64,000 nucleotides of DNA from Shigella phage PSD9 (MZ561532); one strand, 5' to 3'; positions 53,784 through 60,262 are shown, counted from the first letter of the stretch. Program-made: numbers and translations. Notes: a model not told the origin generated them from the sequence alone.

Positions 53784-54743
53784 TTATTTTTCGAAAGGAC
53801 GAATTAAATGTTGGTTACGCTTAAACCGTTCAATGTAGTCGTTTTCACCTAAAGTCTTGTACATATTAACCACAGCTTGGTAGTTTTCCCATGCATAAGT
53901 GCGGAACCAACCTGAAGTGATTGAGGTGCACACTTTCTCAAGGGCCATATAGAAACTTAATGATGGTGAAATATTGAAGTCATTAGGAACCTGTGAACGT
54001 TCTAGTGCCAGGACACAAGTTTCTTCATACACACCAGCCAGTTTAATAGCTTCAGGCAAAGCCTCGAACTTCTCACGAGAGGTCATGACTTCAGAACCTT
54101 CCTTCATATAAAAGGTATATGCAGGGCGCCCTGCCAATGCCACTGCTTCATGAATAGAGTCATGGTCCAGCGTATAAATGGTATCATTAAAGAACGATGA
54201 TTTGTTTACATCCAATTTAGGGTGGGAATAGCTCAACGTTTCTTTTTGACGTTGCAACATAATTTCCTGGAGTTCTTCGTTAAGGGTGATACCTTTATTA
54301 CGAAGGTATTTGATGTGGGACATGGTTTTCAAGAAGAACGGATTATTCTTAAGGAAACGATGAGAGGTTTTGATAGCCAGACAGATATCAGGGGTGGCCC
54401 AATAGAAACCAGTAAGACGGTCCTTTTTAATATGATTTTCAGCATATTTCAGGAGACGATAGCTTGAAGTGAAATCTTCGTCTTGAAGCTCACCGGTAAT
54501 TTCTCGTACGTTAGTCAGAGCACGAACGATATAAGCTTCAAAATAGGTTTCTTTACCATTATGCATACATTTGAAAGCCTGGACATCAGGATTGTCAACG
54601 TGTACATGGGCGCCGAACATACGTGCTTTAAAGTGATTCCATGAGCCTTGGTCGGCAATGAAATCCCAATCAGAATTTTCGATATGCTTACTTTCAATCA
54701 GACCAGCGTGGTGCAGTGCACGAGAACCAATAACTAACATCAT
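53784..54743 (-). CDS. hypothetical protein, possible NTase-like fold (about 319 aa)
   Basis: N-terminal IGSRALHHAGL ... SDWDFIA loosely resembles Pol-beta NTase signature; start adjusted. Confidence 0.4.
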   Translation of the reverse strand: MMLVIGSRALHHAGLIESKHIENSDWDFIADQGSWNHFKARMFGAHVHVDNPDVQAFKCMHNGKETYFEAYIVRALTNVREITGELQDEDFTSSYRLLKYAENHIKKDRLTGFYWATPDICLAIKTSHRFLKNNPFFLKTMSHIKYLRNKGITLNEELQEIMLQRQKETLSYSHPKLDVNKSSFFNDTIYTLDHDSIHEAVALAGRPAYTFYMKEGSEVMTSREKFEALPEAIKLAGVYEETCVLALERSQVPNDFNISPSLSFYMALEKVCTSITSGWFRTYAWENYQAVVNMYKTLGENDYIERFKRNQHLIRPFEK

Positions 54744-54762
54744 AATATTTTCCTCAGTAAAC

Positions 54763-55002
54763 TTAAATTTCAGCGACGTAATCGTTATGCAATTCCCACA
54801 TATCATCAGAATTATTCTTAATGATAGGAATTATCTCATTAGAGATTTCTTCAGCATAAGGGTCATTGATACAGTGGGCATCTTCAAAACGAACACCGTA
54901 ATCAGACTTCTTATAAGAGAAGCCATAAATCTTTTTAAACTTGGCGCGAGTAATGCGTACCGGTTCATTGGACTTATCGGACATCGGAGCGTAATACCAC
55001 AT
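54763..55002 (-). CDS. hypothetical protein (79 aa)
   Basis: minus-strand ORF. Confidence 0.4.
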   Translation of the reverse strand: MWYYAPMSDKSNEPVRITRAKFKKIYGFSYKKSDYGVRFEDAHCINDPYAEEISNEIIPIIKNNSDDMWELHNDYVAEI

Positions 55003-55045: not shown

Positions 55046-55396
55046 CTAGAGTTGTACATCACTTCTGCAATATTCTAAAAATAATTTATCATTGTCTACT
55101 GTATCCCAACGACGCCAAGACGGGTTCCAGACCAAAGCGTTGTCACCACAATCATTGAGCTTAAAATGGTCGTAGTACATAGCTATGTGTCTAGTCTCGT
55201 CACCAGAGAACCCCAGTATAGGCTCACCGCGGGTGTGATACATATGATGGTGCATTGAGAGGTCGCATTTGTAAAACATCTCACGTTTACCACGAACGAA
55301 CAAGAAGGCCTGTCCATTCATATAGAATTCTTTATTTGTTTTCAAAAGATATTTGAATACTGAATCTTTATGCATAAGTCCTCCTACCACATCCAT
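55046..55396 (-). CDS. hypothetical protein (116 aa)
   Basis: minus-strand ORF. Confidence 0.4.
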   Translation of the reverse strand: MDVVGGLMHKDSVFKYLLKTNKEFYMNGQAFLFVRGKREMFYKCDLSMHHHMYHTRGEPILGFSGDETRHIAMYYDHFKLNDCGDNALVWNPSWRRWDTVDNDKLFLEYCRSDVQL

Positions 55397-55405
55397 GTGG
55401 TTAAA

Positions 55406-55633
55406 TTATTTTCCTAACGAAATACGAGTAGGTTTTTTACCGAAATAGTCTTCATAAGAACCATCTAAACGACCTGCTTTAGACCGACAATATGAATCGT
55501 ACTTTTTGTAATAAGTCATCTCAGTATTATAACGCGGGTGTCTATCAGCCATAATAATACTTAACGGCCAACCTTTGGCATAATCGCGAAGACCATTTAT
55601 TTTACGAATGTATCTTTTCTTTAATTTTAGCAT
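55406..55633 (-). CDS. hypothetical basic protein (75 aa)
   Basis: minus-strand ORF. Confidence 0.4.
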   Translation of the reverse strand: MLKLKKRYIRKINGLRDYAKGWPLSIIMADRHPRYNTEMTYYKKYDSYCRSKAGRLDGSYEDYFGKKPTRISLGK

Positions 55634-55851
55634 GAGCTCGGATACCAGATTTTACCATCGGCCTGAGCAACGAAGGTGCGTCCAGCTTCTTCACCATAAC
55701 AAGAACTATTCAGCCAATCTTCGAGACGAACTTCACCGTCATAATCGTCGAGCTCAACACCAAAACTTTGAGCAGAAGCCATATCTTTTACTTTCTTATA
55801 CAGTGCAGCCAGTTCAAGTGCAGCTTTTTCTAATTCATTAATATCAGACAT
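55627..55851 (-). CDS. small acidic protein, W-x-SS-x-C C-tail family (paralog 4)
   Basis: ends ... KIWYPSSC. Confidence 0.45.
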   Translation of the reverse strand: MSDINELEKAALELAALYKKVKDMASAQSFGVELDDYDGEVRLEDWLNSSCYGEEAGRTFVAQADGKIWYPSSC

Positions 55852-55862
55852 TTTTTATCACC

Positions 55863-56075
55863 TTAGCAAGACATAGAGGATGTAAACCAGAAACCTTCAC
55901 CTTCCGGAATACCGTAGTCATCACGGACCCATTCGTAATCATCATATTCCGGGTTCTTTGGAGAAATGTATTCTCCACGACCAGAAACACGGAACTCTTC
56001 ACCCGTTTCGTCAGCCACAGACTGGCCTTTACGTACTAATTCACGGATTTGGTTTTCAATTTCATCAATAGTCAT
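55863..56075 (-). CDS. small acidic protein, W-x-SS-x-C C-tail family (paralog 3)
   Basis: ends ... FWFTSSMSC. Confidence 0.45.
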   Translation of the reverse strand: MTIDEIENQIRELVRKGQSVADETGEEFRVSGRGEYISPKNPEYDDYEWVRDDYGIPEGEGFWFTSSMSC

Positions 56076-56084
56076 TTTATTTCC

Positions 56085-56366
56085 TTAACATTCAGAAGAA
56101 GAGGACACCCAACCACCATTTTCTAGGCTGGTAGTGTAATCATGTTGGTTTACAATAGCGTACTGAGCTTCACCGTATTCTTCCCAGTGGGCAAGGTCGG
56201 CTTTCAAGGCGCCAGGAGAATAATAGTCACCGCCCATACCGCGAGCAGGGTATATATTAAAATGAGTCTCATATTTGTTTGCAATTTCCTCGGCACGACG
56301 AATAGCTTTATGGATATCATTTACTGCGTCAGCCAGCTCTTTATTTTTATGGTAATCATTCATCAT
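56085..56366 (-). CDS. small acidic protein, W-x-SS-x-C C-tail family (paralog 2)
   Basis: ends ... GGWVSSSSEC. Confidence 0.45.
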   Translation of the reverse strand: MMNDYHKNKELADAVNDIHKAIRRAEEIANKYETHFNIYPARGMGGDYYSPGALKADLAHWEEYGEAQYAIVNQHDYTTSLENGGWVSSSSEC

Positions 56367-56375
56367 AAAATTTCC

Positions 56376-56666
56376 TTAGCACATTGCCGAAGAGGAGATC
56401 CAAGCACCAACTGTAACGACGCCATTTTCAACTTCACCACCGTTGTTTTCAATTTCATCTTTAAACCACTGGGAGCATTCATAACCGACAGGATAATATG
56501 TACGGCCTGAACCATAATCACCAGTACCGAATTGGATACCATACTTATCGGCAATAGCTTCACATTCATGTTCGATGGTATCTACTTTATTTAGAAGAGC
56601 ATAGATAGCCTTTTCTGCAGATTTCTCGTCGTTGTGTTCTGGGATTTCGATTTCAATTTTATTCAT
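56376..56666 (-). CDS. small acidic protein, W-x-SS-x-C C-tail family (paralog 1)
   Basis: ends ... GAWISSSAMC. Confidence 0.45.
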   Translation of the reverse strand: MNKIEIEIPEHNDEKSAEKAIYALLNKVDTIEHECEAIADKYGIQFGTGDYGSGRTYYPVGYECSQWFKDEIENNGGEVENGVVTVGAWISSSAMC

Positions 56667-57013
56667 GATTTACATTCCTTAATAAAGGTTTCAAGGTCAT
56701 TACGTTTGGTTTGTTTTACATACTCATTATAATTAGCCATCGATACAGCATATCTCTTTTTACGTGGCTTGTTTATTTTATTGGTTTGGGCAATATCAAA
56801 GACCAATGGGATAAAATACCCTATTAAAGCAGGAACCCAAATCCAGGCAAGGTTCAATTCAAATATGTTTTGTGTCGTATCATTAACGACTCCACCAGCA
56901 ATTAGTCCAACAAGTCCGGCAATCGTACCAGTGACAAGTCCAGCGAATAAAGAAATAGCAATATCATAATCTGCTAATGCGTAACCAGGGTCGGTTTTAC
57001 TAGGCTTATACAT
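56663..57013 (-). CDS. hypothetical membrane protein (about 116 aa)
   Basis: TM helices; start adjusted to MYKPSK. Confidence 0.4.
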   Translation of the reverse strand: MYKPSKTDPGYALADYDIAISLFAGLVTGTIAGLVGLIAGGVVNDTTQNIFELNLAWIWVPALIGYFIPLVFDIAQTNKINKPRKKRYAVSMANYNEYVKQTKRNDLETFIKECKS

Positions 57014-57542
57014 TTTGAACCTCTTTAGCGTATTCACGGCATTCAGCAATAAAACGATTAAGCTTCCGTTGTTGTTTTCGAATCTCTGATGTATACTCAT
57101 TGGCTAAAATAATAAGCTCGTCTTTATCGTAATTTTTAATATCAGAGTAAGATGGGCGGCGGTCGACCATACCAAAATGGTCACCATTTTCTAACATCAA
57201 ATAGCATACTAAATGGTAATCATCGTCGGCATTAGTAAGCTGTTTATAATCGCTTGGTTCATTTAAAGAGTATACTGAATAGCGTAGCCCAGCGAATTCC
57301 ACTCGTTGAATAGCCAGATTTACGTCAATAATTTCCAAAGCATCTTCAAAAGAAAGGTCTTCAGCTAAAGCAAAAATAAAAGGTAATTTGGTAGTATCGC
57401 CACGGCTAGATGTTCTGCTTAAGAAATCGTTTGAATAGCCTAGGTCTTGGCGAATTCTATAAAGAACTGAATTGGTTTCATGGGAAAGACCACTATTTTT
57501 AAACCAATCAATATTTGATATCAAATTATCATATAAACCCAT
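57006..57542 (-). CDS. hypothetical protein (178 aa)
   Basis: minus-strand ORF. Confidence 0.45.
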   Translation of the reverse strand: MGLYDNLISNIDWFKNSGLSHETNSVLYRIRQDLGYSNDFLSRTSSRGDTTKLPFIFALAEDLSFEDALEIIDVNLAIQRVEFAGLRYSVYSLNEPSDYKQLTNADDDYHLVCYLMLENGDHFGMVDRRPSYSDIKNYDKDELIILANEYTSEIRKQQRKLNRFIAECREYAKEVQNV

Positions 57543-58184: not shown

Positions 58185-58260
58185 AGTATTTCCTTCAGTT
58201 GGTTAACGTTTTGTAATCCATGAGGACATTATACCCTGTCCTCTGAGGTTTGTAAACATT

Positions 58261-59866: not shown

Positions 59867-60108
59867 TCAAAAACGCTACTCGGCTTACGGCAAAGATATT
59901 TCCTCGAATCGATAATTCGGTGCGCCGTTTCTGCTGTGATGTAAGGGGACGTTAACAGATCGTAAAGATTTGTTAATGCCAGTCCTTACTCAGGGAACAT
60001 CAGTCCGACGACTTACCGGTAGCGACCCGGTTTCTTGTTTGTTGCGCCGGTGAATGCTGGTAATCAGTCTTCATACGACGGCTTGACTATATAATAGTCT
60101 TCATTTGG

Positions 60109-60180
60109 TATCCCGCCCTGGGATCGAACCAGGACCGCAAACTTAGAAGGATCGTATGCTATCCATTACACCAGCGGGAC
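60109..60180 (-). tRNA. tRNA-Arg (anticodon UCU)
   Basis: hand-folded cloverleaf: acceptor GTCCCGC/GCGGGAT, D-loop AATGGATA, anticodon loop CTTCTAA, T-arm CCTGG-TTCGATC-CCAGG. Confidence 0.6.
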
Positions 60181-60188
60181 GTAGTTGG

Positions 60189-60262
60189 TGACCCAGACCA
60201 GATTTGAACTGGTAACCTTTCCCTTATGAGGGGACTGCTGCTAACCATTGAGCTACAGGGCC
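60189..60262 (-). tRNA. tRNA with CAU anticodon (Ile2-like or Met)
   Basis: hand-folded: GGCCC acceptor start, D-loop AATGGTTAG, anticodon loop CTCATAA, T-arm ACCAG-TTCAAAT-CTGGT; several stem mismatches. Confidence 0.5.

Follow-up and report, generated by a model that had tools for sequence, protein, structure and literature searches.

Enzymes of the nucleotidyltransferase (NTase) fold that act on a hydroxyl of a dedicated protein are known from several pairs, GlnD-PII, GlnE-glutamine synthetase, MntA-HepT and CitX/MdcG, the last with a small acidic acyl-carrier protein of ∼100 amino acids as the substrate, modified on a serine. The MenT1 toxin, also of this fold, is controlled by MenA1, a protein of 68 amino acids that is encoded upstream and has a dispensable C-terminus (PMC10435456), and enzymes of the MenT type transfer phosphate to serine or threonine hydroxyls (PMC11375011). 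Here we report on a stretch of 64,000 nucleotides from Shigella phage PSD9 (MZ561532), in the following called the window, in which four consecutive minus-strand genes at 55627-56666 encode small proteins that share a C-terminal tail, and a gene for a Pol-beta-type NTase-fold enzyme lies ∼0.8 kb downstream on the same strand. We name the small proteins by their lengths, p96, p93, p70 and p74; all four open reading frames (ORFs) are present where the original prediction, made by a model from the sequence, had placed them. The small proteins and the enzyme very probably (at roughly 90%) form a functionally coupled two-component module of T4-like, jumbo and other large virulent phages.

The coupling is most apparent at the level of gene order. 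We retrieved 80 viral loci with the enzyme as the sole query and scanned them for tagged genes, with a hidden Markov model (HMM) of the small-protein family and then with a plain regular expression for the tail over all 5,801 ORFs. The HMM alone gave 154 matches, all on the strand of the enzyme gene, with 151 upstream and 3 downstream of it in equal amounts of sequence, and by this measure 25 of the 29 enzyme clusters (70% identity) have tagged genes. Together, the HMM and the tail expression gave 232 tail-bearing genes in 79 of the 80 loci: 228 lie upstream of the enzyme gene on the same strand, 4 downstream and none on the opposite strand, against a background of 1484 upstream, 1451 downstream and 2866 opposite-strand ORFs. 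Tail-bearing ORFs occur essentially nowhere else in the 760 kb of flanking sequence. Each enzyme gene is accompanied by 1-6 tagged genes, typically 2-5, and the smallest gap between a tagged gene and the enzyme gene in these enzyme-anchored loci is 4 nucleotides.

Reverse look-ups were made from distant members of the small-protein family. The first three led to unrelated phages, two of them jumbo phages (395 kb and 378 kb) and one of 122 kb, and in each the next or next-but-one gene downstream encodes a DUF7277+DUF7275 protein of 313-349 amino acids. Overall, the enzyme gene was found close downstream in 10 of 10 look-ups, with 0-3 small genes in between, a rule that the window also follows. 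The linkage spans 98-kb Pseudomonas phages, 350-395-kb jumbo phages, Aeromonas and Acinetobacter phages and T4-like phages, lineages in which the neighborhoods are otherwise scrambled, and all-against-all clustering of the neighbors in 31 representative loci found no third family in more than 5. These data show that the linkage is strict, polar and independent of lineage, and that it is to one NTase-fold gene with intact catalytic motifs.

Genes for an RNA ligase, for Acb1 (of the anti-CBASS phosphodiesterase family) and for Gad2 are found near the module only sporadically (Table 1). Their presence suggests an accessory or counter-defence region, with none of them consistently linked to the module. 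Among bacterial and archaeal representative genomes (185,579 species) only two loci were found, one on a 167-kb contig of a bacterial bin and the other in a Saccharibacteria metagenome-assembled genome, and both could be phage DNA. With this count, and with both loci possibly on phage contigs, an origin in a cellular toxin-antitoxin or defence system was rejected.

The tail shared by the four proteins, which the original prediction had singled out, was readily recovered: they end in WISSSAMC, WVSSSSEC, WFTSSMSC and WYPSSC, that is, in W-x-[S/T/P]-S-S-(x-x)-C. In a six-frame translation of the window only these four stop-to-stop segments end in the motif, and 10 of the 321 stop-to-stop segments of at least 60 amino acids terminate in Cys. 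Tag statistics were taken from 147 listed representatives outside the query alignment. A terminal Cys with a Trp eight residues from the end is present in 133 of these, and all 133 have Ser at positions −5 and −4, although this was not required by the selection. Position −6 is Ser, Ala or Pro, and Gly-Gly usually precedes the Trp. The general form of the tag is W-x-[S/A/P]-S-S-x-x-C, with the Trp, both serines and the terminal Cys invariant, and p74 and its relatives carry a short form, W-x-x-S-S-C. A small subgroup has one extra residue after the Cys (W-x-S-S-T-x-x-C-x), and therefore what is fixed there is the spacing from Trp to Cys and not a free carboxylate on the Cys. Two or three tandem W-x-S-S units within an acidic stretch rich in Asp, Glu and Ser are found in ∼11% of the members (25/219; e.g., ...WESSSEGWESSSEGWVSSSSQC), and p74 has an internal WLNSSC at residues 46-51 (55699-55716) besides its terminal WYPSSC.

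We considered whether the similarity of the tails could be due to chance or composition, to a by-product of a nucleotide signal or to ORFs that are non-coding, and give this a negligible probability. In p96, p93 and p70, the TAA stop after the terminal Cys codon (TGC/TGT) opens the TAAGGA/TAAGGT Shine-Dalgarno sequence of the next gene, which imposes some constraint after the Cys codon. Against this, the two serines use all six Ser codons (TCN and AGY) and the Cys both of its codons in 87 distinct tail DNA sequences, and therefore selection acts on the protein and not on an overlapping ribosome-binding site; an artefact driven by that site was rejected by the same codon variety. The bodies alone are also significantly similar. 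For an HMM without the tail, we took 140 metagenomic relatives, none of them from the window, and removed the last 10 alignment columns; this tail-less model still finds p96 (E = 9e-20), p93 (E = 7.8e-18) and p70 (E = 1.9e-9) among 406 window ORFs. It misses p74 in the same set; the p74 orthologue is joined to that of p96 by body-only BLAST via one intermediate. Judged from these sequence comparisons, the four genes are paralogues of one family and not merely alike in composition. The size of the family, a confident AlphaFold2 model and the annotation of the genes as coding sequences in related phages further argue against a spurious similarity, which the tests of codon use, of the tail-less HMM and of family size refute.

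All four proteins match phrog_899, a catalogue entry of unknown function and the only one under which the family is listed, with E values of 2.5e-23 for p96, 6.9e-20 for p93, 6.2e-14 for p70 and 1.4e-9 for p74, and the alignments fall in the C-terminal third of the 221-position profile. An exhaustive profile search of 1.84 billion representatives (E ≤ 1e-3) yielded 333 clusters at 50% identity, almost all of 64-144 amino acids, with the match extending to the last residue. Family proteins as a whole span 52-172 amino acids, with N-terminally extended members of 134-172, and have a median isoelectric point (pI) of 4.45. The bodies are 22-32% identical to one another within one genome. As far as sampled, the family is confined to phages. 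The author of the original prediction did not recognize it, and rightly so: in Pfam, NCBIfam and PDB sequence searches, the four proteins and 144 relatives had no matches beyond sub-threshold noise and helix-like similarity to designed proteins, no PDB fold match was obtained for the small proteins, and a BFVD search returned only uncharacterized relatives such as RB69ORF139c. In a scan of the whole T4 genome, neither the enzyme nor the small-protein family nor the tail motif is present. T4 Tk.1, which came up at E = 0.005 with filters off and has no tail, was treated as noise.

The shared core had been described in the original prediction as rich in Gly, Tyr and Glu. A common core does exist, but it is better described as a long N-terminal helix that leads via a Gly-rich loop (consensus YGxGGTYYP) to a small beta unit. 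The loop is absent from p74, whose tail is also two residues shorter. Residues A39, G52, G54, Y57 and W67 of the body are near-invariant across the family. The AlphaFold2 model of p96 has a predicted local distance difference test score (pLDDT) of 91.9 and places a helix of 29 residues at positions 14-42, followed by the beta unit; the last block, which contains the tail, has a pLDDT of 77, below that of the body. For 19 of the 232 tagged proteins, the body is not linked to the family by BLAST, and some tail-bearing proteins encoded beside the enzyme gene lie outside phrog_899; no recognizable domain was found in the N-terminally extended or divergent tagged proteins. A sulfur carrier of the ThiS/MoaD type was rejected, as the small proteins do not combine a beta-grasp fold with a C-terminal Gly-Gly, and a secreted signaling peptide was rejected because these are acidic folded proteins with no signal peptide.

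The window enzyme (∼320 amino acids) matches Pfam families PF23940 (5e-77) and PF23942 (2.6e-27) and is catalogued as phrog_2141. In Pfam, DUF7275 and DUF7277 are the only families above threshold for it and for 51 homologues. Residues G7-S8, D26-x-D28 and E70 are invariant in 52 enzyme homologues and correspond to the classic motifs of Pol-beta NTases; the hG[GS] and [DE]x[DE] motifs and the third carboxylate are all found on the minimal NTase alpha/beta core. In structural comparisons the closest neighbor is the MenT1 toxin (score of 10.2), and ANT(2'') (8.6), TglT/MenT3 (8.6), MenT4 (7.7) and LnuA (7.3) are further relatives. PDB sequence-profile searches with the enzyme alignments found nothing. 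Likeness to DUF1814, the family of MenT and AbiEii, is at the fold level only. Conservation is even higher in the C-terminal helical lobe (DUF7275) than in the catalytic part. The lobe has numerous charged residues that are invariant, along with two invariant cysteines, and may harbor an HD-like metal site, for which H129, H175, D194-H195-D196 and H199 are the suspected residues. The mechanical ORF of the enzyme reaches 54806, which adds 20 codons upstream (54747-54806; MICGNCITITSLKFKFTEEN...). This extension is probably not translated, because the homologues and the Bp7 annotation start at MMLVIGS.

The enzyme is present in at least 734 phage records, with hosts that include Escherichia, Acinetobacter, Aeromonas, Pseudomonas, Vibrio, Streptomyces and Gordonia. 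It is labeled as a putative nucleotidyltransferase in a few records of Acinetobacter phages. Structural labels ("prohead assembly scaffold protein", "major capsid protein" or "tail completion protein") are attached to the enzyme gene or to its neighborhood in NC_055783.1/MK295203.1 (vB_EcoM_005) and in the record of Klebsiella phage vB_KpnM-VAC36; they look like mis-annotation. One metagenomic phage contig (L100:4262-5221) has the enzyme gene in two pieces just after a tagged gene, as ORFs of 150 and 134 amino acids that both match DUF7275; a pseudogene, a frameshift or an assembly error could explain this. We also noted that one of the invariant cysteines of the enzyme opens the invariant segment C273-T-S-I-T-S-G-W280, which when reversed mirrors the tail (Trp, a Ser/Thr run and Cys seven residues on). 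The other invariant cysteine is C244. The mirrored segment may be a coincidence, or it may reflect antiparallel pairing or a metal or disulfide site shared with the Cys of the tail.

Sequence identity of the region is 99% to Escherichia phage LQ5 and 97% to phage Bp7. These two phages are T4-like, with Bp7 classified in Dhakavirus, Straboviridae; the window is a Dhakavirus (T4-like) genome. The array is flanked by homologues of T4 e.2 and e.6, with all of the genes between them annotated as "hypothetical". The four small genes, each annotated as a coding sequence in related phage genomes, have a Shine-Dalgarno sequence (TAAGGA or AAGGTGA) 5-9 nucleotides 5' of the ORF, and their products are acidic (pI of 4.2-5.0). 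In p74, the Cys codon and the ATG of the next gene overlap (TCATGCTAA). The array genes are tightly packed and probably translationally coupled, and the overlap between the stop of the preceding ORF and the start of p96 (ATGA) suggests that translational coupling extends into the array. The protein of that preceding ORF has hydrophobic stretches and weak matches to transporter families, and its gene is not kept beside the module in other lineages. The ORFs between the array and the enzyme gene match phrog_7065 and phrog_9796, both of unknown function, and gave no match in an NCBIfam scan; in other phage lineages, the array directly abuts the enzyme gene.

Table 1. Positions of the array, the enzyme gene and associated features (window coordinates unless a locus is given)
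Feature	Position	Strand	Description
p96	56376..56666	-	First array gene; 96 amino acids, pI 4.35; tail GAWISSSAMC, tail codons 56379-56402
p93	56085..56366	-	Second paralogue; 93 amino acids, pI 5.02; tail GGWVSSSSEC, tail codons 56088-56111
p70	55863..56075	-	Third paralogue; 70 amino acids, pI 4.17; tail GFWFTSSMSC, tail codons 55866-55889
p74	55627..55851	-	Fourth and most divergent paralogue; 74 amino acids, pI 4.22; short tail KIWYPSSC, tail codons 55630-55647
Stop/Shine-Dalgarno overlaps	56376-56385, 56085-56094, 55863-55872	-	
Partner enzyme gene	53784..54746	-	DUF7277-DUF7275; Pol-beta-type NTase fold
Intervening ORF	55406-55633	-	75 amino acids; tail-less
Intervening ORF	55046-55396	-	116 amino acids; tail-less
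Intervening ORF	54763-55002	-	79 amino acids; tail-less
ORF upstream of the array	56663-57100	-	145 amino acids mechanically, 116 in the Bp7 annotation; matches phrog_2330
Sigma-70-like promoter	58228..58256	-	TTTACA-17-TATAAT, 11/12 matches; upstream of the e.6 homologue; consensus match only
Sporadic accessory-gene loci	L091:6304-6765, L008:11139-12071, and L003, L090, L091		Metagenomic phages

The sigma-70-like promoter upstream of the e.6 homologue is likely the start of an early-type leftward unit that includes the array and extends as far as the enzyme gene, and the T4 late-promoter box TATAAATA is absent between 53.5 and 59.5 kb of the window. Because promoters of the sigma-70 type are present and no late box is nearby, we expect the array to be expressed early and to have no role in the virion. 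Such a role had been implied in the original prediction by the proposal to look for the proteins in virions by mass spectrometry, and it finds no support in this arrangement. Genes for tRNA-Arg(TCT) and tRNA-Met(CAT) lie ∼3.5 kb upstream of the array at 60106-60262 on the minus strand, in the position of the T4 tRNA cluster, and could be of interest because the closest structural relatives of the enzyme modify tRNA 3' ends. Close relatives of the phage carry a fifth tail-bearing paralogue (65 amino acids, ...SGTSWVSSSYEC; L011:3469-3666, with equivalents in L012-L018) in a ∼200-bp insertion between the genes of p93 and p70, whereas the junction in the window (56076-56084) is only 9 nucleotides long, and one array member has therefore been gained or lost recently.

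The original prediction suggested that the tail is a tag common to the four proteins and serves in modification, targeting or metal binding. The idea of a shared tag has strong support, with its Trp, Ser-Ser and Cys kept family-wide and encoded with the full choice of Ser codons, and either modification or targeting would fit with the tie to one NTase-fold gene. Metal binding by a single protein is unlikely, as 145 of 248 family members have no Cys other than the terminal one. There is no further conserved Cys or His column in the family, as would be seen in a zinc ribbon or Cys cluster, and an intramolecular metal site was rejected on these grounds.

Within the coupled module, the tail itself is likely to engage the enzyme directly, by docking. 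As to the outcome of this contact, we lean tentatively, at somewhat below even odds, toward the small proteins being acceptor substrates that are covalently modified by the enzyme. We favor this because NTase-fold enzymes attack with hydroxyl groups and the two invariant residues near the Trp are serines, in a W-x-S-S unit that is often repeated, because a minority of the tagged proteins, as described above, have bodies that are not linked to the family, and because MenT-type enzymes are able to phosphorylate Ser/Thr hydroxyls (PMC11375011). A substrate is preferred over an inhibitor because up to six tagged genes accompany a single enzyme gene, and the lower model confidence of the tail compared to the body was counted in the same direction. 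In such a scheme, the array would be expressed early together with the enzyme, the exposed tail would dock into the enzyme, and the enzyme would use a nucleoside triphosphate to move a nucleotidyl or phosphoryl group onto one of the two invariant serines, while the terminal Cys would help to position the tail or would join in follow-up chemistry. The modified proteins might then have a later role, for example, in host takeover or counter-defence. The most elaborate version, a dedicated phage protein-tagging system in which the NTase covalently modifies the array tails, probably for host takeover or counter-defence, is doubtful. The product in that case could be a stable Ser-O-nucleotide conjugate, or the Ser, once activated, could undergo elimination and be attacked by the terminal Cys, so that a folded protein would bear a thioether ring at its C-terminus.

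Several points weigh against covalent modification of the tails, or against the coupling itself. Simple nucleotidylation of Ser does not explain the invariance of the terminal Cys, and neither does any other model considered here. The gene order, with a small acidic helical protein followed by an NTase, and the likeness to MenT1 fit an inhibitor equally well. The enzymes of the Pol-beta fold that are known to nucleotidylate proteins (GlnE, GlnD and MntA) use Tyr acceptors and not Ser. The two-residue shortening of p74-type tails indicates that the geometry of the tag is not strictly fixed. Enterobacter phage CC31 (GU323318.1; locus L032), alone among the 80 enzyme-anchored loci, has the enzyme but no tagged ORF within 5 kb, and in the window itself the array and the enzyme gene are not adjacent but have three unrelated small genes between them.

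The main rival to a substrate role is that the small proteins are antitoxin-like inhibitors or regulators of a MenT/AbiEii-like effector, one that, for example, extends tRNA 3' ends. Bound to this effector, the small proteins would restrain it or set the timing of its activity, with the tail either blocking the active site or triggering auto-phosphorylation of the invariant Ser8, in the manner of MenA antitoxins on MenT. The control of MenT1, the closest structural relative, by an upstream-encoded helical protein of 68 amino acids (PMC10435456) speaks for this, and the phage proteins are likewise acidic and begin with a long helix. On the other hand, the C-terminus is dispensable in MenA1, yet it is the most conserved feature of the phage proteins, and up to six tagged genes per enzyme gene would be unusual for an antitoxin. 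The near absence of the module from cellular genomes is also unlike toxin-antitoxin systems, Pfam gives no sequence match between the enzyme and the DUF1814 family of MenT/AbiEii, and none of the known antitoxin families is related in sequence to the small proteins. We consider this explanation unlikely.

We regard as improbable a role as adaptors or specificity subunits, in which the constant tail anchors the protein to the NTase while the varied bodies bind targets or mimic nucleic acid, so that the paralogues direct the enzyme to several host or phage substrates. The divergence of the bodies behind a constant tag, the several paralogues per genome with their N-terminally extended members and the acidity typical of nucleic-acid mimics would all suit such a role, but the near-invariant body residues argue for a common function, and the extended members lack a recognizable binding domain. 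To our knowledge there is no precedent for it among Pol-beta NTases, which we also counted against it. Finally, the tag could serve a purpose unrelated to the enzyme, be it toward a host factor (a defence sensor, protease or chaperone), in oligomerization or in the bridging of molecules by metal or disulfide through the lone Cys, and the linkage to the NTase gene would then reflect only co-regulation or shared descent. In the window and in its relatives, the array and the enzyme gene are 0.3-1.6 kb apart, with unrelated genes in between, which would be compatible with this, as would the situation in CC31. However, the linkage holds across lineages with scrambled neighborhoods where no other gene is conserved alongside, and shared descent alone is insufficient to account for tail-bearing ORFs being confined to the vicinity of the enzyme gene. 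We consider this explanation quite improbable.

If the coupling is functional, the two genes form a widespread module that reaches from T4-like phages to jumbo phages of 395 kb, with the enzyme in at least 734 phage genomes, and DUF7275, DUF7277 and one PHROG of unknown function become a testable system. Modification of the tails would, if true, amount to a new protein modification pathway; alternatively, these phages would carry a MenT-like effector with regulators of its own. In either case there are implications for the ways in which large phages evade host defences and keep control of translation or protect it, and the invariant tail could become a portable recognition tag for biotechnology.

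The superfamily of the enzyme is known, while the small-protein family, its tag and the pairing are undescribed. Literature searches with DUF7275/DUF7277, the phrog identifiers, the RB69 ORF names and phage NTase/MenT found nothing on the module, and the phrog_899 entry lists neither a function nor a tail motif nor a connection to phrog_2141. One nucleotidyltransferase accompanied by arrays of proteins that share an eight-residue C-terminal tag has no described counterpart. Compared to MenAT1 and AbiE, there is no sequence relationship: the phage enzyme has only DUF7277 and DUF7275 in Pfam and does not fall into the DUF1814 (AbiEii) toxin family with its motifs III and IV, and the small proteins, with no Pfam match, could not be placed among COG5340/AbiEi or MenA1-family antitoxins, either by Pfam and NCBIfam scans of them and of 144 family members or by PDB sequence and fold searches. 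The phage module further differs in its arrays of 1-6 partners, in its invariant tail and in its occurrence in virulent phages and almost never in cellular genomes.

In ribosomally synthesized and post-translationally modified peptides (RiPPs), C-terminal S/T-x-x-C motifs give rise to lanthionine or aminovinyl-cysteine rings, and it is usually the leader that is conserved while the core varies. The phage locus resembles these systems in having several precursor-like genes beside a single enzyme gene and an invariant Ser three residues before the terminal Cys, often with Gly-Gly before the motif. It differs in that no dehydratase, cyclase, flavin/Cys decarboxylase, protease or exporter recurs near the module in the 31 loci, with none among the Pfam labels of the neighbors in the 10 reverse look-ups either, and in that the phage proteins are folded, 52-172 amino acids long and free of signal peptides, with the putative modified site as the conserved part. 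The p74-type tails (S-S-C) also leave no room for a ring. A chemical parallel is CitX/MdcG, whose modification of a serine on a small acidic protein is, by analogy, the chemistry that we propose for the tail serines of the phage proteins.

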